A DNA stretch of 64,000 nt from Candidatus Heimdallarchaeum endolithica (GCA_021513715.1 CP084167.1:1088001-1152000), one strand, 5' to 3'; shown: positions 13,895 through 59,245, counted from the stretch's first letter. Notes: generated from the letters alone by a model not told the origin. Program-made: numbers and translations.

Positions 13895-14523
13895 TAAATC
13901 ACATCCAATATTTTTTTGAGGTTTTTATCAAATTTAGATAAATATCTAGAAACTTTTTTTAATTCTTCTTTCAGTTCTTTGTTTTTCTTATTCAGTTCTT
14001 TGTTTTTCTCACTCAGTTCTTCGTTTATCTTATTCAGCTCTTCGTTTTTCTTATTCAGTTTCTTTATCTTATTCAGCTCTTCATTTTTCTCACTCAGTTC
14101 TTCGTTTATCTTATTCAGCTCTTCGTTTTTCTCAGTCAGTTCTTCGCTTATCTTATTCAGTTCTTTGTTTTTCTCACTCAGTTCTTCGTTTATCTTATTC
14201 AGCTCTTCGTTTTTCTCACTCAGTTCTTTGATCATTTTTACTTTTTTATACTTTAACTCATTTACCTGTTGAGATAACTCAGAACGCGCAGACTCTGACC
14301 CATTTTCTTCTTGAGTTAACTCAGAACGCGCAGACTCTGACCCATTTTCTTCTTGAGTTAACTCAGAACGCGCAGACTCTAACTCACTTTCTTCTTGAGT
14401 TAACTCAGAATTCGCAGACTCTAACTCACTTTCTTCTTGAGTTAACTCAGAATTCGCAGACTCTAACTCACTTTCTTCTCGAGATAATTCAGAATTATTG
14501 TTGGAAATTTTATTCACCACCAA
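13894..14523 (-). CDS. Coiled-coil protein built from heptad tandem repeats
   Basis: (ELTQEESELESANS)x~5 followed by (EELSEKN/EELNKIN)n; stop overlaps the start of the next gene. Confidence 0.75.
   Translation of the reverse strand: MVVNKISNNNSELSREESELESANSELTQEESELESANSELTQEESELESARSELTQEENGSESARSELTQEENGSESARSELSQQVNELKYKKVKMIKELSEKNEELNKINEELSEKNKELNKISEELTEKNEELNKINEELSEKNEELNKIKKLNKKNEELNKINEELSEKNKELNKKNKELKEELKKVSRYLSKFDKNLKKILDVI
13958..14229. repeat. Intragenic 21/42-bp tandem repeat encoding EELSEKN/EELNKIN heptads
   Basis: Recurrent ttattcagctcttcgtttttctcactcagttcttcgtttatc units; boundaries approximate. Confidence 0.9.
14268..14493. repeat. Intragenic 42-bp tandem repeat (about 5 copies)
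   Basis: Recurrent ttcttcttgagttaactcagaa(cg/tt)cgcagactct(aactcact/gacccatt) units; boundaries approximate. Confidence 0.9.
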
Positions 14524-35183: not shown

Positions 35184-35495
35184 GTGATAAAAATCATTAA
35201 GAATAAAACTGGAATCTTCGTTAACATTAGATTTTGGACCGACTTTCCAGATACAGAAGAAGAACAAAAGCAAGCTTGGGCAGCCGGTACTCTGTATGTA
35301 AGAGCATCAGAACATCATGAAATAACATCAGAAAAATCTGTTCAATTTAACAACTTAGAAGAATTCATGATAAAGTTAGATGAAGTTTTAAAACTCAATG
35401 GAGTTAAATTAGTTATAAGGGATGAAAATGGTAATCTTGTTCCTAGATTGGGAAAGGGATATCCAAAGGGAACCTGGGCTGGAAGATATGAGTAG
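35184..35495 (+). CDS. Hypothetical protein
   Basis: 103-aa ORF with normal composition; gaggtg SD-like motif overlapping the start. Confidence 0.6.
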   Translation: MIKIIKNKTGIFVNIRFWTDFPDTEEEQKQAWAAGTLYVRASEHHEITSEKSVQFNNLEEFMIKLDEVLKLNGVKLVIRDENGNLVPRLGKGYPKGTWAGRYE

Positions 35496-35641
35496 ACTAT
35501 TCAGATTTCAAACTTGAATTTAAGTTGGGGAAATGTATAGAGTGTGATGTTCACGGAAAAAGTTTGAGTGAAGCTAAAAGGATGGTAATACAAACTCTTA
35601 AAGAATGTCAACAAAAGGACATAAGAATCATAGATATCATT

Positions 35642-35862
35642 CATGAGTTGAAATTTTACGTAATTTCTTCAGGACTCTCCCCAACCAACCAACAAACTTA
35701 GCGAAAGTTGTGAAGACTGGCTTAAGAGAACATGAAAGACACAGTCTCAATTAAGTTCTCAAAGGGGTTCATCTCCTTATCCCGGGAACTCATAACTCCC
35801 AAAGGGAAAACCGGGTGTCGTGGGAATGAAACCTACGTCTTTAAGCATATAGCTCAAGACAC
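35642..35862 (-). ncRNA. Putative structured RNA (omega-RNA-like) within copy A
   Basis: Same TATA box and stem architecture as copy B. Confidence 0.55.
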
Positions 35863-36016
35863 TAGATAAATGAGAATTAAATATATAAAGATAGCTGAAA
35901 AGTTGTTACACTCCCCAATATTTTGTATTTTTTATTTAAGCAAATGTGTTTCAGGTTGTTATTGGTCTAATAACTCCACAAACTAAAAATTTAGTTTTTT
36001 ACGTAAAAAAGTATCT
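35646..36016 (-). mobile_element. 371-bp non-coding mini-element, copy A, flanked by CATG/CATG
   Basis: Near-identical (about 7 substitutions by eye) inverted copy at 41111-41481; removal restores the Smr ORF; subterminal TTACGTAA palindromes at both ends. Confidence 0.9.
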
Positions 36017-37392
36017 CATGGTTACAAGAGGGGAAGAGTTCTAAAAGACTATTTCAAGTCGGATTCTTTTCTTAAGGAAACAAGAAAATTGGGATGTGAA
36101 CTAATATACGAAAATGATGATATTTTCTTAAATCCAGGTAGAACTAGTTATTTAATTCGATTCATAAATGGGAATGAAGAAAAGAAATCGATTCTATCAA
36201 AAGAATGGATAGGTTTTATTGCCCATAAAGAATCCGAACAAAAGACAGAAAAAGATTTTCAACAAGGCTTCTATTATATTAAAGAAGAGACACAATTTTG
36301 TGATGAAGAAGAATCAATATTGATGAGTGATAAAGAAGATGATGAACTAGAAGAAGAATACACTCTTTTCACAGATGAAAATGAACAAAAGAGAGAAGAC
36401 CAAAATAATTATGAATTCCTCAGCATCACAGTGCCTGAACGAGAGTACACGATTGATAATATTTCTCCTAAAGATAATATTGCTGATTTAATTCACGGAT
36501 TCAGATTGCGAATTCCAGAATACTCTAGTTATGATTTATTACTAGGGTTAACTTATCAGGGTTCTGGAGATCTAACACTTCGAATTTGTAAATATAATTT
36601 CTATAATCAAATGATTCTACCTAAAGATAATATTGATTTTATTAAATCTGATAAAAAATTGCATTATATACATGATTTTGCAGAGGGGTTAGAAAAAATA
36701 ATTGACAATTTTGCAACTCTTAATAAGATTAAACAAAATAAAGAAAGAAAAGTCTTAAATTCAAGTTTAAGAACAGGAACAAGTTGTTATCTTGTGTACT
36801 CCCTCTGCTATTATAAAGATAATAGACATATTGGAATAGCTTTTTATCCAATCGACAATAAAACAATTTTTCGAATCTTTAGGGTAGATCTTCCTTATTC
36901 AGCTCAATATGAAGTAAATATAAGAACAGATCATTATGGAGGGCACAAATGTATAGACATCTCTATACAAGGATTAAACTACAAAAAATTTATCATAAGT
37001 TTTAAAGAACTGTTTATGAAAATTCTTGAATATTTGGATGAAACAGATACATTATTTATACTTTGAGTTTGGAAAACATTCTTTAAATTGGAAAAAAGTA
37101 TTACCTCTCACGTGTCTGATTTGTTATATCAAACTTGCGATCGCAATATATACCTTTTTCGTGGTCCCTTTGCTCCAGTAAATTGATAGAATACAGGTTT
37201 GTAACTAAGACAAAGAAGAAGATAATACAAAATCATCACACCATAGACTTTCTTGTAAGATAAGCCGTAACAAAACAGCAAAGTGCATTATTATAAGGGC
37301 ATCTAAACATTTCGATAGAAATTAGTATATAGTATAAAACAAAAAGTTAAATAATAAAGCAAACATAGACTACGTCTAAAGGCTTGAAACAA

Positions 37393-38162
37393 CTAAAGTT
37401 TACAACTTTTTAATTTCTCAAATTGTATTAACTTTGTTAATTTTTTCAATAAGAGGTAGTAGTTCTTCCCTCTTTCGTAGAAGTATTTCACTGCCACATC
37501 TTGCTCTTTTAACACTCTAGACTGTATTACTGTTGCTCCTGTTTCTTTTGCGAAATACAACTTGTTGGGTCTATCGTCAATAATTAAAGAATTTTTAGGT
37601 TCAACTCCAGCATGTTCAAACATACGTCTATAAAAAATAGTATCTTTTCCTGCTCTATTTAGGATATCTAGTCCATAAAATTCAGTAAAGAGGTGGACTA
37701 TTCCCATTCCTTTTAAATATCCTTTCAATTCCCAAGAATTTTCAGCTGAAGCCGTATATAGTTTATATCCCTGGTTAGCTAGCTCTTTAACAACTTCAAC
37801 TATTCCAGGAACAGCAGATTGTACTCTTTATCTGATCCAAACTACTGCTTCTCTGGCTAGCTTCAATGGTTTATCAGGAAATTTTTCCATTAAATCAAGG
37901 TAAACAAACTTATCTTTAATCCAGTTGAACTCTAAGAAAGATATTAGTTCTGTATAATCTATGTCAGGATCATCCTTTATTGAGTTGTAATAGTTTTTTA
38001 AGTATCTTTGAAATGCGTATTCGTTTGCTTTACTCCAATCATTTAGTGTTTTTCCATATTTAGGGCAAAAAACTCGTAAATTAGTTTTTGCCATTGTTTC
38101 TCTCTTAAACTATTATTATTCAGCACTCCTCCGTCGTCAAAGAAAATATTCTCTAATTTCAT
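37393..38162 (-). pseudogene. HAD-family hydrolase pseudogene
   Basis: Start MKLENIFFDDGGVL at 38162, frameshift in a T-run near 38070, in-frame TAA at 37828-37830, motif IIDDRP. Confidence 0.8.
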
Positions 38163-38356
38163 CCTAAACGTCTAAATCTTTTTTGTTATTAAGATTTCCT
38201 AATTAACTCACTAGTCAATTACATATTCTTATTTAATTTGTAATAATATAAAATAATATTCTGTAACCATTTTAGTGTGCTTTATTAGAGAAATTATTGT
38301 AAAGTGTCTAGTTTAATAAGCAAAATTTATTATTCCACATATGTGTACGTGTATAT

Positions 38357-38563
38357 ATGGCTACAAAAACTATCTCGATAAAAGAGAAGGTATATAAAAA
38401 ATTAGTAGCAATGAAAAGAGAAAATGAAAGTTTTAGTCAGTTGCTTAATCATCTAGTTAACGAACAAATATCAAATGCTACTTTAGAGAAACTTAGAGGA
38501 ATTATGGAGTTCGAAGATTCAACGTCTCTAATAAAAAAAATAGAGAAAAGGAGAGAAGATTAG
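38357..38563 (+). CDS. VapB-type antitoxin (archaeal DUF217-like)
   Basis: MATKTISIKEKVYKKLVAMKRENESFSQLL. Confidence 0.8.
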   Translation: MATKTISIKEKVYKKLVAMKRENESFSQLLNHLVNEQISNATLEKLRGIMEFEDSTSLIKKIEKRRED

Positions 38564-38569
38564 ATACAA

Positions 38570-38599
38570 ATGATTATTTTAGACAGTGTGTTTAGATAA
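38570..38599 (+). pseudogene. Stub of the cognate VapC toxin
   Basis: MIILDS, the typical first strand of a PIN domain, begins 6 bp after the antitoxin and then stops. Confidence 0.45.
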
Positions 38600-38694
38600 C
38601 CTTGATAAATTTGCGTCTTATACATTTTCTTTAAATTAAATAATGTCACTATTCTTTTAGAAGAAATTTATAAATACTAAGAATAGAAGTATCT

Positions 38695-40380
38695 ATGATG
38701 GGTAAAAGGAATTTAATAGATATTGTTAATATTGGCCCTATCGAAGAAGCAAAAATTGATATTAATAATTTAACAGTGCTAATAGGGCCAAATAATTCAG
38801 GAAAATCCTATGCAATATTATTATATCACTCTTTAATAAAAGGATTAAACGTTTTGTTAGACCAATTTCAAGCTAGAATTCTCAAAAAATTGTATGAGGA
38901 TAAATTTAACGGAAAATTTAAAGCTATAAAAAAAGATGAAGAAAAAAATCTTTTTGAATTTATTATAGAATTCTTTTGGTTCATCATTGAAGAGTTTGTT
39001 TCAAGTGATATAGCAAGTAAAACAGAAATACCTCAATTAAATAAAAATGAGTTAAAATTTTTCAAAAAAGATGGAACTTTAAAGGAAGATCCTGACACAA
39101 TTTTAAAAATATTAGCTAACGAGATTGATGAAGTATGGCAATCCCTTATTAACGAAAAGCAGAATGTTGCAGAGATATTTTATAATAGTTTATATAAGAC
39201 TTTTAGATTAGAGCCCAATCATCTAATTTCATGGGGAAGTAATGAGAATAAATCGCTTATTAAATTGTATTATGATGATTACATTTTACAGATCGAACTA
39301 TTTCCACACAGTAAAGTTACGGACACACTAAAAGTAAATATTTCATATCCTTCAGAAAATTGGAGAAGACATATAATTAATGCTATTAATGAGATTATCA
39401 AATATAAAAGAGGATACACACTGTTCTTTGAAGAAGCTCTTGATGGAATATTATTTGAAGAACATAGAACCTCTAACGGCAAATCATTAATCTATAACAC
39501 AATGAGAACATTTATCTTGCGTAACTTCATTACAAGTTTAAGGAATGAACTAGTATTAACCTTGGTTATTCCTGCAGGGAGAGGAGCATTAATACGTGCT
39601 CATGATGTTCTTACATCTGCAATTATTAAACAATCTACTACAATTGGACTTGAAGAAGCAAGTTTTCCTGGACTTATGGAGCCTATAGCTAGTTTCTTAA
39701 TTGATCTAATAAATGCTAAAGACAAATTAAAAGAACATGAGTCAAGTAAGATAAAAGCAAGTAGAGAAATAGGAAAAATATTATTGGATTTTGATAAAAG
39801 TTTATTGAAAGGAAAAATAAGTTTTGTTGATGATAAGGATCTATTAAGTTCTCTTGGTAAAGCAATATATTATGAACCCTCTAACACAAATGAAAAGATA
39901 CCTCTAAGAAATGCTTCATCAGCGATAGGAGAGCTTTCAGGACTTAGACTGTTTTTAGAATCACATCTAAATGAATTGCATAACTCAATTATTATTATAG
40001 AAGAACCAGAGGCACATCTTCATCCAGAAATGCAAATAAAATTTGTTAACAATTTAATTGATTTAAGTAAGTATGTTAAAGGCATTATTATAACTACTCA
40101 CAGTGACTACATAACTCAAGGAATAAACATTCGCATTTTAGAAGATACAGTAAATAACTTAAAAGTAAGTAAGAAAGAATTAAAAGAAAAACAACCATTT
40201 TACAAAAAAGTTTCCGTTTATTGGATGAAATTTAATGGAAATAATCAAAGCATCACTCAAAAGATAGCAGTAGAGCCCGACGGATTACAACCTGAAACTT
40301 TTCTAGATGTTATTGACGAATTGGGAAATAAAACATCATATCTATTGTCCAAAATAGACAATTATAAAGAAGAACAGTAA
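38695..40380 (+). CDS. ABC-type ATPase (AAA_15/AAA_21, defence-associated class)
   Basis: NIGPI, GPNNSGKS, ASSAIGE, IIEEPEAHLHP, ITTHS. Confidence 0.88.
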   Translation: MMGKRNLIDIVNIGPIEEAKIDINNLTVLIGPNNSGKSYAILLYHSLIKGLNVLLDQFQARILKKLYEDKFNGKFKAIKKDEEKNLFEFIIEFFWFIIEEFVSSDIASKTEIPQLNKNELKFFKKDGTLKEDPDTILKILANEIDEVWQSLINEKQNVAEIFYNSLYKTFRLEPNHLISWGSNENKSLIKLYYDDYILQIELFPHSKVTDTLKVNISYPSENWRRHIINAINEIIKYKRGYTLFFEEALDGILFEEHRTSNGKSLIYNTMRTFILRNFITSLRNELVLTLVIPAGRGALIRAHDVLTSAIIKQSTTIGLEEASFPGLMEPIASFLIDLINAKDKLKEHESSKIKASREIGKILLDFDKSLLKGKISFVDDKDLLSSLGKAIYYEPSNTNEKIPLRNASSAIGELSGLRLFLESHLNELHNSIIIIEEPEAHLHPEMQIKFVNNLIDLSKYVKGIIITTHSDYITQGINIRILEDTVNNLKVSKKELKEKQPFYKKVSVYWMKFNGNNQSITQKIAVEPDGLQPETFLDVIDELGNKTSYLLSKIDNYKEEQ

Positions 40381-40393
40381 AGGAGGGGTTACT

Positions 40394-40963
40394 ATTCTTG
40401 AACAATTAAAAACTATTTACCCAAATTGTACTTGTATACAATGCAAGGAAGAAGGATTAACTGTTTATTTTACCGATAAAGAACTCCCACGGAATTATCC
40501 CCTCAAAAAATGCAAAAAGCAGATATCTGTTCTAGAAAAATTCTCAATTGATCCTCAAGGTACAACAAGAAATACAAATTGTGAATTTCCAATCTCATAT
40601 AATCAAGAAGAAATTTATCAAACAGGTTTTACTGACTTTTTAGCTGTAGTTAATAAAGAAAATAACTTTCCAGAATATTTATGCCTAATTGAACTTAAAT
40701 CTTCATTAAAAATAACAAATGAAACAGAAATGAAGAAAATAAAAAGTAAGTTTGAAAATACCCTTAAAGCTTTAAAAAACGATGGAATAAATCTAAATCT
40801 AAAAAATATTGTCTGTGTAGTATTTTATGGAAAAAAAAGATATTATCCTAAAAAATCTAAAGGAATCTTCATAAAAATGAATATCAATGTTTTCGGAACT
40901 AGTTTTCCTATATTTGAGTTGCAAAATTATAAACCATTATGCACTTTACCTATATTTGAATAA
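40394..40963 (+). CDS. Putative PD-(D/E)xK nuclease partner of the ATPase, with a non-canonical ATT start
   Basis: Frame is open from 40358 to 40963; strong SD aggagggg at 40381-40388 before ATT 40394; motif TDFLAV...LCLIELKS lies upstream of the called ATG at 40730. Confidence 0.6.
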   Translation: MLEQLKTIYPNCTCIQCKEEGLTVYFTDKELPRNYPLKKCKKQISVLEKFSIDPQGTTRNTNCEFPISYNQEEIYQTGFTDFLAVVNKENNFPEYLCLIELKSSLKITNETEMKKIKSKFENTLKALKNDGINLNLKNIVCVVFYGKKRYYPKKSKGIFIKMNINVFGTSFPIFELQNYKPLCTLPIFE

Positions 40964-41110
40964 GGAATTATATGTTTTTCATTATTTTGCAAGTTGATAA
41001 CCCTTCTTGTAAGGAGGTTCTAACTAGAAGAAGACCTTAAGGCAAGATAGAGTAAATTTATTGTTGATTTCATATTTTTCTTCTAATTTCTTGAAGAATT
41101 AATATCCATA

Positions 41111-41481
41111 AGATACTTTTTTACGTAAAAAACTAAATTTTTAGTTTGTGGAGTTATTAGACCAATAACAACCTGAAACACATTTGCTTAAATAAAAAAT
41201 ACAAAATATTGGGGAGTGTAACAACTTTTCAGCTATCTTTATATATTTAATTCTCATTTGTCTAGTGTCTTGAGCTATATGCTTAAAGACGTAGGTTTCA
41301 TTCCTACGACACCCGGTTTTCCCTTTGGGAGTTATGAGTTCCCGGGATAAGGAGATGAACCCCTTGGAGAACTTAGTTAAGACTGTGTCTTTCATGTTCT
41401 CTTAAGTCAGTCTTCACAACTTTCGCTAAGTTTGTTGGTTGGTTGGGTAGAGTCCTGAAGAAATTACGTAAAATTTCAACT
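41111..41481 (+). mobile_element. 371-bp non-coding mini-element, copy B, flanked by CATA/CATG
   Basis: Inverted near-identical copy of 35646-36016. Confidence 0.9.
41238..41245 (+). promoter_or_regulatory. TATA box driving the element RNA
   Basis: TTTATATA about 20 nt before the first stem (G41265); identical in both copies. Confidence 0.55.
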
Positions 41482-41485
41482 CATG
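41265..41485 (+). ncRNA. Putative omega-RNA-like structured RNA (about 220-nt scaffold plus flank-derived guide)
   Basis: Stems GTGTC/GACAC, GTAGG/CCTAC, CCCGG/CCGGG, AACTTAG/CTAAGTT and AAGACTG/CAGTCTT; loop TATGAGTT is complementary to the terminal AACTCATG. Confidence 0.6.
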
Positions 41486-41755
41486 TTTCTGTTGGACATA
41501 AAAATGACAATTGATAGTGTTGAGTATCAAGGAAAGACAAGACCAAAACAACAACAATATGAACTTAAGCATCCAAAAGAATACAAGTTATATTGGGCAA
41601 CTTTTCCTGTAACAGACAGAAAACAAATTGAAGGCAAAGAGAAAATACAAATCTATGTTGATATAAAATTCTTCAGTAAGAAATTCAAGAGATATAAGAA
41701 ATATACAGATTTACCAGAAGAGGATTTAAAGAGGTTCATATATTCTATTCAATAA
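41483..41755 (+). CDS. Small hypothetical protein (true start may be the later ATG, MTIDSV)
   Basis: 90-aa ORF whose first ATG is the CATG at the element end. Confidence 0.5.
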   Translation: MFLLDIKMTIDSVEYQGKTRPKQQQYELKHPKEYKLYWATFPVTDRKQIEGKEKIQIYVDIKFFSKKFKRYKKYTDLPEEDLKRFIYSIQ

Positions 41756-50723: not shown

Positions 50724-50967
50724 CATGATTTACTTTTTGCGAAGTTTGTCGAACTTAGTCTTTCAAGAAAAAAACAAAGAAAGAGAATTGTCAGTTTCTT
50801 GAGAACTTAATCCTAACATACAATGAAAGAAGAAGGATTAAGGCAGACGTCATACACGAATCGTGGGAATCATAAAGAAGAAAAGAGTTGTAAGCTCTTT
50901 CTTCACTCCACGAGAGACAAAAAAGAAACAATTATCCCTAAAATAGAGAAATTATTTTTCTTTTTGT
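50724..50967 (-). ncRNA. Putative omega-RNA of the TnpB element
   Basis: 3' of tnpB up to the element end; stems UCGUGG/CCACGA, GAAGAAGAG/CUCUUUUUC, CUUAAUCCU/AGGAUUAAG and UCAAGAAA/UUUCUUGA; loop UAUGAUU is complementary to the terminal AAUCAUG. Confidence 0.65.
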
Positions 50968-52566
50968 CTACTGGGACTGCAACCAATGGCTGAGTCCTCG
51001 GCAAACAGTGTAGTGAGTAAGACTGAATTTTTGACCAGTAAAATAATCAGTAATAGTTGTAGTACGGGGACGAAAAAGATGACTAAGGAATTTACGAGCA
51101 ATATTTCTTGCCCCTGTCAAATCGGAGTGGAAGGTGTAATTGCAAATGGGACAGTGTACTAACCCTCTAACGGGACGAGAAACTTCTTTTCCACAACGGG
51201 AACAATGAGAAGATGTTCCTCTTTCGTCTAAAGTGAGAATGCGGTGAGATTCAAAACCTCTTAATATCAATGCTCGACGGAGAAGACCAAGAACTAAAGA
51301 AAAATTCCACTGGTGAAGTTTTCTACGAAAATAACGAGTACTTTTTTCTTTTCCTTTTTCTTTATCTTTTCTAACATTTTTGGGGTAACCTACGACGACG
51401 AAAAGGTCATACACTTTTGCATAACTCTCTATTGTCCGCACAACGTCGTTTATAAATTGGTGAATATAGGACCGTTTAACGTTTCTATATCTCCGACGGA
51501 GAAGACCGAGAAAACGATAAATTTGGTGTTTTTTACCCGACTGGTCATTTAAAGCCGCTTTCCTCTGAAGACGGGAAAGTTTGAGTTTATATCTATGATT
51601 GATTCTATTCCACTGTTTGGTATGCCAGAATTTTATTTCTTTAATAGTTAATTTCTTTTTGGGAGTTAGTAACACTCCTGCTGCAGGAATGTTTATCCCT
51701 AGATCTATTCCCAGCACAGCTGGAGGAAGAGAAGAAGAACTTTCTTTTTCAGGAGGATAGAAAGAAGGAGGAGGAAGAACTTTCAATTGGAAATACACCC
51801 ACCATTCACGTGTAGAACGTTTATATCTCAGTTCTAAACTTTTTATTTGTCCTTTCTTCAATTCTTTTTGATGGAAAGTGCTCATCTCTAAAGGTAACCA
51901 CAATCGTTGATGATACCTTGTCTTTCTTTTCCACGTGTCTAATGAGTCTCTTATTCCTACCCACCAACGAGAAATGGAGTTGTTTTTTTCTTTTGGTAAA
52001 TTAGTAAGAATAAATCTTTTTTTATTGATTAGTTGTCTTCGGGGTCTCTTTTTTGGAGGACGAGTGGCTTCAGGTCTATATCCTTGCTCGTACAGTTGTA
52101 CTGCTATATCTCTGCACTCTTGAAACTCATCGTGAGAACAATGGCGAAACATCTTTTTAAGGTCATGAGGAACAGTCTCTCTTCGCTCTTCTACTTTTTT
52201 TATCCTTGATGTTGTTAATGTTAGTTCATCTAACTTCCCTTTATGTACTCTTATTTCTCCGTTCTTTGTTTTCATACACAGTCTTCTTCTGTTGTGATGT
52301 ATAATTTTTACATACTTTTCTATTATCCTCGTGTCTCTCCCTGTTATTCTCCTTAATCTTTCCTTTTTTCTCCTCGTCAAAACTTCATTCTTTATTCTAA
52401 CTTTCAAAGTTTTGACTATCTTCTCCATCTTTTTTCCTCTTATTTTCCTTTTTCTTCTTCTTCTCTTCATTTATTTCTACTATTTTTTCTTATAAAAAGT
52501 CTCTTTTTTTTCTTTTTTTTAGTTTCTCATCCATACTCTCTATCCTAATGTTCGCAAAAAGTGAAA
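50728..52566 (-). mobile_element. 1839-bp TnpB-only element with terminal inverted repeats, flanked by CATG on both sides
   Basis: Ends atttACTTTTTGCGAA / TTCGCAAAAAGTgaaa; CATG at 50724-50727 and 52567-52570; excision restores the host ORF; no transposase gene. Confidence 0.9.
50968..52470 (-). CDS. tnpB: TnpB RNA-guided endonuclease with a rearranged RuvC-II
   Basis: RuvC-I LGIDLG; VVVGYP replaces the canonical V.EDL; alternative Glu in LDERGTSS; Zn finger CSRC..CPIC; RuvC-III HSDLTGARNI; TATA tttttataag about 20 nt upstream. Confidence 0.92.
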   Translation of the reverse strand: MKRRRRKRKIRGKKMEKIVKTLKVRIKNEVLTRRKKERLRRITGRDTRIIEKYVKIIHHNRRRLCMKTKNGEIRVHKGKLDELTLTTSRIKKVEERRETVPHDLKKMFRHCSHDEFQECRDIAVQLYEQGYRPEATRPPKKRPRRQLINKKRFILTNLPKEKNNSISRWWVGIRDSLDTWKRKTRYHQRLWLPLEMSTFHQKELKKGQIKSLELRYKRSTREWWVYFQLKVLPPPSFYPPEKESSSSLPPAVLGIDLGINIPAAGVLLTPKKKLTIKEIKFWHTKQWNRINHRYKLKLSRLQRKAALNDQSGKKHQIYRFLGLLRRRYRNVKRSYIHQFINDVVRTIESYAKVYDLFVVVGYPKNVRKDKEKGKEKSTRYFRRKLHQWNFSLVLGLLRRALILRGFESHRILTLDERGTSSHCSRCGKEVSRPVRGLVHCPICNYTFHSDLTGARNIARKFLSHLFRPRTTTITDYFTGQKFSLTHYTVCRGLSHWLQSQ

Positions 52567-53343
52567 CATGGAATTGATACAGCCTTATCAGTTGCTAAAG
52601 AAAAAAAACTTCAAGTTTTTCGACCATTTGAAACTAAAAAGTTTATCATTAGAGTTTTTGATTCTGAAAAGGTTGCCAGCGTTGTTAAACTTAAATTTTA
52701 CGAGAAATTATTTTTCAAATTAAAAGAAAAAAATAAGAAAATAAAGAATAGTGCTAATCTCAGACAATTTAGAAAAGAAGATATTCCAATTTTATTTGAT
52801 TTACTAGTAGATCTCACTAAAGATTATGAAGTATCAATAGAACCTAATTTTGAAGATTTTAAATGGGTATTAGAACAACCAGCAACTAATTGTATAATTT
52901 ATGAAAAAAGTGAAGAAATAAAGGGATTCATGCTTGCTTGGGAGTTCAAACTTGCAGATTTCGGAAATGCAATTCCTTTTGGTTGGATAGATATTATTCA
53001 CATAAAAAATCTATCTACATCAGAAGCTACAGATTTGAGTCTGTATCTATCTGAAACGAGTAATGCAAAAGGATGGTTGGGATTACAATCCCCATACATT
53101 CCTTATTATAAGTCTAAACCTTTACAAAAAGCTAACTTTGTTTTTTTCCCCAAAAAACTAAGTTTTGACATTATTTTACTTAGCAAAGTGAAAATACCTG
53201 GTAAGTTTAAAGCTGCTTACTTTGATTGGAGATGAACACTCATTTGAAAGAGAATAGAAGGAACTAATGAAAAAAATAGAGGTTAAAGATTTACATTTTT
53301 TCCAAAGGTTTAAAAATAATAAATTGTAAGGGATAATAGAAAA

Positions 53344-58507: not shown

Positions 58508-59245
58508 TTAGTTTTCTTGTTCTTGTTCCTTTTCTTGTTCTTGTTCCTTTTCTTGTTCTTGTTCCTTTTCTTGTTCTTGTTCCTTTTCTTTGTCTTTCAT
58601 CCATTCAGGAGTTTCATTTAATCTTGCTTTCCAATCAAATTCTTGAAATCCAGTCATTCTTTTTTCCATTTTAGAGGCTACTGCAGATTCTATTTGATGA
58701 AATCCGTCATAGAATTCATCTATTTTTTTTACTCTTTCTTTTTGTTTTATTCTTTCTTGTGCTCTTTTTTCAAAATCAAATAAATAAGCGATGTAGCTAA
58801 AAAGTCCCATCTTTTTATCTCTAAGGTGTCTTTTTATTAAATAAAGGATGGAGGCTAACATTAAAGCTCCAGTAACAAAAAATATCCCAATTAAGATTTG
58901 TGAAGACCATTGAGTTCCGAAAAAGGTTAGATATATACTAACAGGTAAATATGTTGCAGCCATAACAATAATAGGTATTGCAACAAAAATATACAAGAGT
59001 TCATTAATTGCACTAGCTATGGCATATCCTCTTCCTGTTAAAAACCGTATCATAACACCTGAAAAGAATGTTCCTGCGAGTATAGCTATAATAACAAATC
59101 CAATTATTTTAAAAAGAGGATTTCCTGAAACAAAACCTAATATTACTGATGCTGTTAAAACTACACCTAAAATAATATTTTGAACTATATTCTTACGGTC
59201 GATGAATTTTTTTCTTTTTGGCACATAATGACCCATTTTCCTCAA
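58508..59245 (-). CDS. Membrane protein (4 TM) with an (EKEQEQ)n tail
   Basis: Hydrophobic N-terminal half; repetitive acidic C-terminus. Confidence 0.75.
   Translation of the reverse strand: MRKMGHYVPKRKKFIDRKNIVQNIILGVVLTASVILGFVSGNPLFKIIGFVIIAILAGTFFSGVMIRFLTGRGYAIASAINELLYIFVAIPIIVMAATYLPVSIYLTFFGTQWSSQILIGIFFVTGALMLASILYLIKRHLRDKKMGLFSYIAYLFDFEKRAQERIKQKERVKKIDEFYDGFHQIESAVASKMEKRMTGFQEFDWKARLNETPEWMKDKEKEQEQEKEQEQEKEQEQEKEQEQEN
58512..58583. repeat. 18-bp tandem repeat x4 (EKEQEQ)
   Basis: (ttttcttgttcttgttcc)4. Confidence 0.9.

Follow-up and report, generated by a model that had tools for sequence, protein, structure and literature searches.

Gene-less mobile elements with a predicted TnpB guide-RNA scaffold in Candidatus Heimdallarchaeum endolithica

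Standalone omega-RNAs of OMEGA systems, mobilised and lacking effector and transposase, have already been described (Altae-Tran et al. 2021, summarised in PMC10691335), and in the retention model the guide of such an RNA targets the element's own empty site (PMC10055086). For the aCas1-linked group of TnpB nucleases, the placement of the guide has been left open (PMC10691335). The Heimdallarchaeum genome paper reports abundant non-tandem repeats, in passages in which the word TnpB does not appear (PMC8813620). Here, we analyze a stretch of 64,000 nucleotides from Candidatus Heimdallarchaeum endolithica (GCA_021513715.1, CP084167.1:1088001-1152000; one strand, hereafter the window), in which positions 35,642 to 41,485 are bounded by two copies of a short repeat, the mini-element or mini. 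The host genome is closed (3,326,783 bp, 31% GC), and Ca. Heimdallarchaeum aukensis PM71 (3,081,793 bp) served as the same-genus comparison. Sequence comparison indicates that the repeats are copies of a gene-less mobile element with a TnpB guide-RNA scaffold whose nuclease gene has been lost.

The two inverted copies seen in an earlier note on this sequence are real, with arms at 35642-36024 and 41103-41485 (383 nt) that are complementary at 98%. The length of 371 bp given there for a self-contained element was slightly short, as each mini measures 378 nt when both terminal CAT triplets are counted in full, or 373 nt between its AT cores. Similarly, the roughly seven substitutions counted between the copies come to eight within the 378 nt, and to seven only when position 41110 is excluded.

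41107..41484, + strand: mini-element copy B, CAT to CAT (378 nt), from comparison of the genome copies
35643..36020, - strand: mini-element copy A, CAT to CAT (378 nt), within an Smr-domain gene, from copy comparison

The genome holds 18 complete copies, 16 of them full-length at 85-100% and two of a 364-nt subfamily, along with about eight further partial ones. All 18 start with CAT and end with CAT, and their flanks are unrelated to one another. The mini is therefore mobile at many sites, in agreement with the earlier reading of a mobile protein-free element. No open reading frame (ORF) with a Pfam match lies inside it. At least 11 matches are present in H. aukensis, and metagenomes yielded seven more stretches, none adjoined by a tnpB. 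Neither a TnpB relative nor a mini end was found in the viral contigs searched, and the representatives examined of the genome's other multi-copy repeat families had no CAT-type ends.

The right-hand part of the mini carries the predicted RNA, with the following features.

41267..41484, + strand: predicted omega-RNA scaffold of copy B (218 nt), from comparison and a covariance model
35643..35860, - strand: predicted omega-RNA scaffold of copy A, from comparison
41267..41290, + strand: first hairpin, left over from the final codons of tnpB (reads LSYMLKD; relatives have LSQWLQT)
41334..41339, + strand: pseudoknot loop strand ATGAGT, which pairs with the terminal ACTCAT (41479-41484); all 6 positions pair in 31/31 sequences

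By alignment and covariance model, the 3′ 218 nt of the mini are homologous to the right-end RNA of an Asgard TnpB clade. The 3′ non-coding region of Heimdallarchaeia TnpB relatives and the mini have in common ATGAGT, GAGATGA, a GAGT before the closing stem strand, and the terminal ACTCAT, and constrained folds give the same order of helices in most tnpB 3′ regions and in the mini. A covariance model built from minis only detected the 3′ regions of the relatives' tnpB genes with 41-44 bits (E 8e-10 to 4e-9) and one resident tnpB with E 2.6e-5; the tnpB in the window scored 15 bits (E 0.06), and the 504-aa family was not detected. Because the C-terminal codons of tnpB read LSQWLQT or LSHWLQS, the first hairpin, which reads similarly, is left over from the end of the gene. 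The earlier suggestion of an omega-RNA that ends at the element boundary is thus supported by a homolog, the RNA ending at the right end of the element like the tnpB 3′ RNAs, which are themselves predicted.

Among the 31 aligned sequences, the pseudoknot pairs include two T-G variants, and two main-stem columns covary (CG17/GC10 and GC20/AT9, as alignment column counts). The main resident tnpB family has a compensatory pseudoknot, ATGATT/AATCAT, and the 504-aa family has one with a single mismatch. The complementarity noted earlier between 41333-41340 and 41478-41485 is in place, but only the 6-mer within it is conserved; base 41340 is G in most copies. Taken alone, a single sequence folds with only modest stability (z -1.67), and the evidence for structure comes from comparison; an Rfam search with the mini matched no family.

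Upstream of the predicted RNA lies a promoter-like box.

41238..41245, + strand: TATA-like box TTTATATA, starting 28 nt before the T preceding the first hairpin, kept in diverged subfamilies; putative promoter element
35882..35889, - strand: TATA-like box of copy A, from copy comparison

Conservation over diverged subfamilies is 54-56% in the spacer at 41161-41214, 76-78% in the TATA region, and 83-96% in the bins of the RNA, save one variable hairpin at 69%; the RNA part is therefore more strongly conserved than the spacer. The same 28-nt spacing is found in the minis of sister genera and before their tnpB leader, with window minis that differ in sequence. Together, conservation and spacing are good indirect evidence of selection for a predicted transcript starting near 41266. 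The palindromes and the TATA-like box lie where the earlier note had placed them, and the conserved spacing favors its view of the box as promoter-like. A scan for bacterial promoters and terminators, a model unsuited to archaea, stayed at chance level.

Further gene-less minis, 353-356 nt long, were detected by the covariance model in other genera of the family, six of them in one genome. These consist of the left end and TATA box of a tnpB element fused to the first hairpin, with the fusion point 28 nt downstream of the first base of the box, at the position at which the leader of tnpB begins in full elements, and they are 90% identical to the RNA of the co-resident tnpB. A second gene-less family of about 355 bp, with its own TATA-like box and the target TC-AT-GA, resides in the host genome in six copies at 97-99% and two diverged ones (C1:2939790-2940145 and near 699972, 2204557, 2846059, 396767, 2658326, 238535, and 98739); its 3′ 160 nt are about 80% identical to the end of a resident 445-aa TnpB family, a clear resident partner.

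The ends of the mini and the gene split by copy A bear on how the element inserts.

41108..41128, + strand: left end of copy B, with AT core, 9-nt spacer, and subterminal arm TTTTACGTAA, from sequence and copy comparison
41464..41484, + strand: right end of copy B, with arm TTACGTAAAA, 9-nt spacer, and AT core; mirrors the left end and overlaps the last hairpin of the predicted RNA
35492..37066, + strand: host Smr-domain gene split by copy A; keeping one CAT brings it back into frame (IIH-GYK)

When joined, the ends form a site that is mirror-symmetric about the AT of the predicted circle junction (TTACGTAAAA-9 nt-AT-9 nt-TTTTACGTAA). The insertion motif is V-C-AT-R, of which AT (or CAT) alone is repeated, and a 4-bp CATG duplication was excluded because the left and right 4-mers are unlike in many copies. 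As the base after the right CAT varies (G12/A4/T1/C1 over the 18 copies), it belongs to the target DNA, and the final G of AACTCATG, which the earlier note had assigned to the element end, is a target base instead. Resident elements of family 1 end in C-AT and those of family 2 in G-AT, and both start with C-AT, leaving AT as the common core. Family 2 has the layout of the minis with different arms and 8-nt spacers, and the bases flanking its core are not complementary. Such non-complementary flanking bases fit a recombinase site better than DDE terminal repeats.

A Y1 tnpA likewise regains its start when another mini copy is removed and one CAT kept. For copy B, the insertion is not clean: to its right lie the final 90 codons of a gene that encodes 155 residues and is intact in H. 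aukensis, and no clean empty site was found for this copy, as H. aukensis has 2.1 kb extra between the flanks, with a right junction that also reads ACTCATG. Relative to H. aukensis (L181), 2.1 kb are missing here between the flanks of 41107 and 41485, among them an ORF of 448 codons and the 5′ portion of the gene found at 41483-41755; the loss is most simply read as a deletion at the ACTCATG microhomology. Remnants of 93 bp that keep the right end only (genome C1:1184271-1184363 and 1375194-1375285; L053:7961-8053) start exactly at the mini's internal CATG, which suggests recombination at this core. One metagenome copy (L191:1780-1945) starts at the loop TATGAG and is flanked on its right by the mini's own reverse-strand sequence, as if it had recombined into another mini copy at the pseudoknot loop.

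Immediately 5′ of the left CAT, a T stands in 1/18 minis and 0/13 tnpB elements against a genome background of 35% (p 0.004; 2.6e-5 combined over the 31 junctions), and in 0/7 sister-genus minis. The elements' own right end reads TCAT, the very form avoided as a target. Family 2 shows the opposite pattern, targeting TCAT in 8/10 cases and ending in TGAT itself. A few tnpB elements of one further genus (genus 4) seem to start with GTCAT, so the avoidance of TCAT is not universal. If the target-adjacent motif (TAM) of a TnpB is the insertion motif, either target pattern would protect the occupied site from it.

The predicted guides begin directly beyond the right CAT, one base earlier in each copy than first proposed (from 41485 in B and from 35642 downward in A).

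41485..41504, + strand: predicted flank-derived guide of copy B, beginning with the target's G, placed by the element boundary
35623..35642, - strand: predicted flank-derived guide of copy A, placed by the element boundary

In searches of the genome, no mini guide had a second match beside CAT, and each fits its own empty site only. The dispersed guide repertoire envisaged in the earlier note was therefore overstated, and single-site guides fit self-maintenance of the locus better.

A candidate nuclease is encoded nearby.

50725..52570, - strand: tnpB-only element with a 500-aa ORF (50968-52470) and a homologous 3′ RNA (50725-50997), with the same CAT ends; candidate nuclease in trans

The genome carries about 18 copies or fragments of a TnpB of 480-505 aa; the elements that hold them are 1.8 kb long, have CAT ends like the mini, and lack a transposase. 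Nine family-1 tnpB genes are intact, and all keep the D, the alternative E, and the D. The model of the window TnpB (pLDDT 84) matches Cas12f/TnpB structures; it has D256, D450, and an invariant E416, and the canonical RuvC-II glutamate is absent. A rearranged RuvC site of this kind is active in TvTnpB and Fanzors (PMC10530073). The nine intact genes belong to the same clade and have an RNA architecture in common with the mini, with low sequence likeness (z about 3). A fragment at genome C1:2052930-2053091 holds the right end of the main resident tnpB RNA but neither its first hairpins nor a left end, and resembles a truncated remnant, not a complete cassette. In one genus, tnpB elements lie just downstream of a HerA-like ATPase gene at six loci (L069:866-3589 and five similar), and the homolog of that ATPase gene in the host genome (2121080) has no tnpB beside it.

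We consider it probable, on sequence grounds, that the mini is a non-autonomous transposon derived from a TnpB-only element by loss of the internal tnpB and retained through TnpB supplied in trans. The deletion would have left both ends, the omega-RNA scaffold, and a promoter in place. Excision as a circle, by crossover at AT, would be the work of an enzyme from another locus, most likely a serine recombinase, and the circle would reinsert at CATR. Transcription from the TATA box would begin at about 41266 and run past the right end into the flank; a TnpB encoded at another locus would load the resulting RNA and cut the empty site (V-CAT plus guide) left by excision, and repair from an occupied chromosome would restore the mini. 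With its TCAT, the occupied site should escape cutting. In this way TnpB would secure the retention of a mini that does not encode it and that, as we infer, depends on enzymes in trans.

Several results weigh against this proposal. The mini scaffold scores z 2.9-3.6 against the nine intact resident tnpB RNAs and z 11.3 against a sister-genus RNA, and neither the two Heimdallarchaeum genomes nor the seven metagenome matches yielded a tnpB whose right end resembles that of the mini, so that the cognate nuclease may be gone. No family-level tnpB locus has a transposase in cis. The covariation counts are not phylogenetically independent, and the 3′ part of the RNA overlaps the DNA recombination sites, so some of its conservation is explained without any RNA function. 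The genome-wide frame test is weak (5/18 against 2-3 for other joins), and the bias at position -2 could stem from a preference of the recombinase and not from TnpB.

Some of the same results would be expected if the mini were an orphaned relic, a miniature inverted-repeat transposable element (MITE) derived from an omega-RNA whose cognate TnpB lineage was lost, spreading by its DNA ends only with an RNA that has no partner in the genome. This is unlikely in our view, though not negligible. The faint resemblance to the resident tnpB RNAs, down to a barely scoring window gene and an undetected 504-aa family, speaks for it, as do the lack of a matching tnpB among Heimdallarchaeum genomes and metagenome matches and the stem pairs broken in several copies, such as an A-G at the stem base of both window copies. 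Such a relic should not, however, have kept the first and second hairpins, the pseudoknot, and the TATA spacing far from the DNA ends while the spacers of its subfamilies became nearly unalignable, nor should its target bias equal that of the resident tnpB elements.

It is improbable that the minis are instead selected by the host, whether as decoy RNAs titrating TnpB or as guides that bind or repress host genes. They outnumber the intact family-1 tnpB genes (18 against 9) and each has a promoter-like box, but no guide has a second CAT-adjacent genomic match, the sites of most copies checked differ between the two species, copies disrupt genes, and TnpB keeps its full rearranged triad. Hardly credible is the idea that the pair bounds a single composite transposon of 5.8 kb with ATPase, nuclease-like, and antitoxin genes. 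The inverted orientation with the right ends outermost would suit it, as would an interval with AAA-ATPase, restriction-endonuclease-like, and VapB-antitoxin matches, much of it absent in H. aukensis; yet the two sides of copy A together make up a single Smr gene, which means that A was inserted alone and already largely refutes the idea, 37409-38211 is syntenic in H. aukensis, and the remaining 16 copies are solitary. The part of the interval at 38357-40963, with a VapB-like antitoxin, an AAA_15/AAA_21 ATPase, and a restriction-endonuclease-like ORF, is unmatched at the syntenic H. aukensis locus and possibly represents a small defence island. Elsewhere in the window, tandem repeats with periods of 21, 42, and 18 nt lie inside ORFs (13950-14494 and 58512-58601).

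For a non-autonomous element kept by TnpB in trans, the mobilising enzyme was sought throughout the genome. Its only Y1 tnpA is broken at codons 2-3 by a mini copy (C1:925509-925884, L026), lies upstream of an unrelated IS605-type tnpB, and belongs to an element with other ends; no Y1 tnpA was found in H. aukensis, even though minis are present there. The genome has no PF02371 match for IS110, one tyrosine integrase, and only canonical Cas1 genes in a Cas1 search. Two small serine recombinases are resident (genome 405348-406097, L028, and 316728-317450, L027), with neither tnpB nor element ends beside them. Both are kept throughout Heimdallarchaeaceae, in gene contexts of a housekeeping-like kind, with about 75% identity in one ortholog group. 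Of the family relatives, 28/30 have small serine recombinases whose catalytic motifs are intact, mostly two per genome and never beside tnpB, and 30 genomes outside the family gave one marginal match (E 7.5e-4).

Thorarchaeal and other TnpB relatives of the same order have as neighbour a large protein in which one stretch is weakly Cas1-like, and they carry GTTCACTCA, in line with the published Cas1H-Asgard groups (PMC10691335); the thorarchaeal partner was not found in the 31 genomes of this family (the host and 30 relatives). As the kin are not independent, this complementary distribution of recombinase and Cas1-like protein is only suggestive. That one of the two small serine recombinases is the mover is a tentative proposal, with a chance a little short of even. 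The thorarchaeal partner, a protein of more than 1200 aa divergent from the tnpB (L125:3-3767, - strand, and 21 similar loci), has a weak Cas1-like N-terminal stretch (probability 5.6%) and no Pfam match; searches of the ESM Atlas and PDB with it returned nothing firm, and it is probably the published aCas1.

A wider scenario, doubtful as a whole, is that in Heimdallarchaeaceae an Asgard TnpB lineage that is elsewhere linked to a Cas1-like protein has no transposase and relies on a serine recombinase of the host, domesticated and inherited vertically, to move it in trans at AT cores; several promoter-plus-guide minis of independent origin would ride along, the window mini borrowing the TnpB of another lineage. 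If a host-fixed serine recombinase is truly the mover, mobilisation of RNA-guided elements by a chromosomal, housekeeping-like gene would be an unusual case, in an archaeal group close to eukaryotes. The type of element is itself already known. For an Asgard TnpB clade that is uncharacterised and has a rearranged RuvC site, the minis indicate where the guide RNA probably starts and ends and which TAM is probably used (V-CAT), so that this nuclease can be put directly to the test.

Compared with known systems, the mini has no protein gene, retains both transposon ends, and is mobile, as are standalone omega-RNAs and PATE-like elements. Standalone omega-RNAs likewise have their effector loci elsewhere in the genome and take their guide from beyond the element end, but their function in trans has been demonstrated, whereas the minis are known from sequence only and their scaffold is no near copy of a resident effector RNA. 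The PATE-like IS605 elements of Geobacillus stearothermophilus (PMC10055086) are also gene-less, with both ends, a right-end omega-RNA, and TnpA and TnpB proposed to act in trans; they differ in having Y1-TnpA hairpin ends with the TAM outside and a different TEM inside, while the minis have an AT core at both ends and mirror-image subterminal arms. With AT/CAT at both ends, mirror arms, and the single tnpA interrupted, the minis do not belong to IS200/IS605 (Y1 TnpA).

IS607 and CboIStron (10.1101/2023.11.20.567912) come close, having a 2-bp core at both ends, a loop-to-3′-end pseudoknot in the right-end RNA, and a target motif 5′ of the core (TGGG in CboIStron, VCAT in the minis), and the scarless excision expected of a dinucleotide core is seen here in the restored frames. 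However, the IS607 core is GG without inverted or palindromic ends, whereas the minis have an AT core and palindromic, dyad-symmetric ends; no serine recombinase adjoins any tnpB here (none in 80 loci), and the two resident ones have an N-terminal catalytic domain, unlike IS607. In the Cas1H-Asgard TnpB groups (PMC10691335), the motif GTTCACTCA also occurs in thorarchaeal relatives of the resident TnpB, downstream of tnpB in 19/39 loci, and the mini ends in the similar TTCAACTCA. Those groups have a Cas1-like partner, whereas here insertions at CAT are dispersed and multi-copy, and no aCas1 gene lies beside tnpB in the genome or its 30 family relatives. A bridge-RNA system of the IS110/IS1111 type does not fit either, given the lack of PF02371 and a target consensus of just VCATR. 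The minis thus resemble a non-autonomous element of the IS607 type yet fail membership in both IS607 and IS605 on ends and transposase. Gene-less guide-RNA elements are already known (PMC10691335, PMC10055086), and what is unusual here are the ends and the missing mobilising enzyme.

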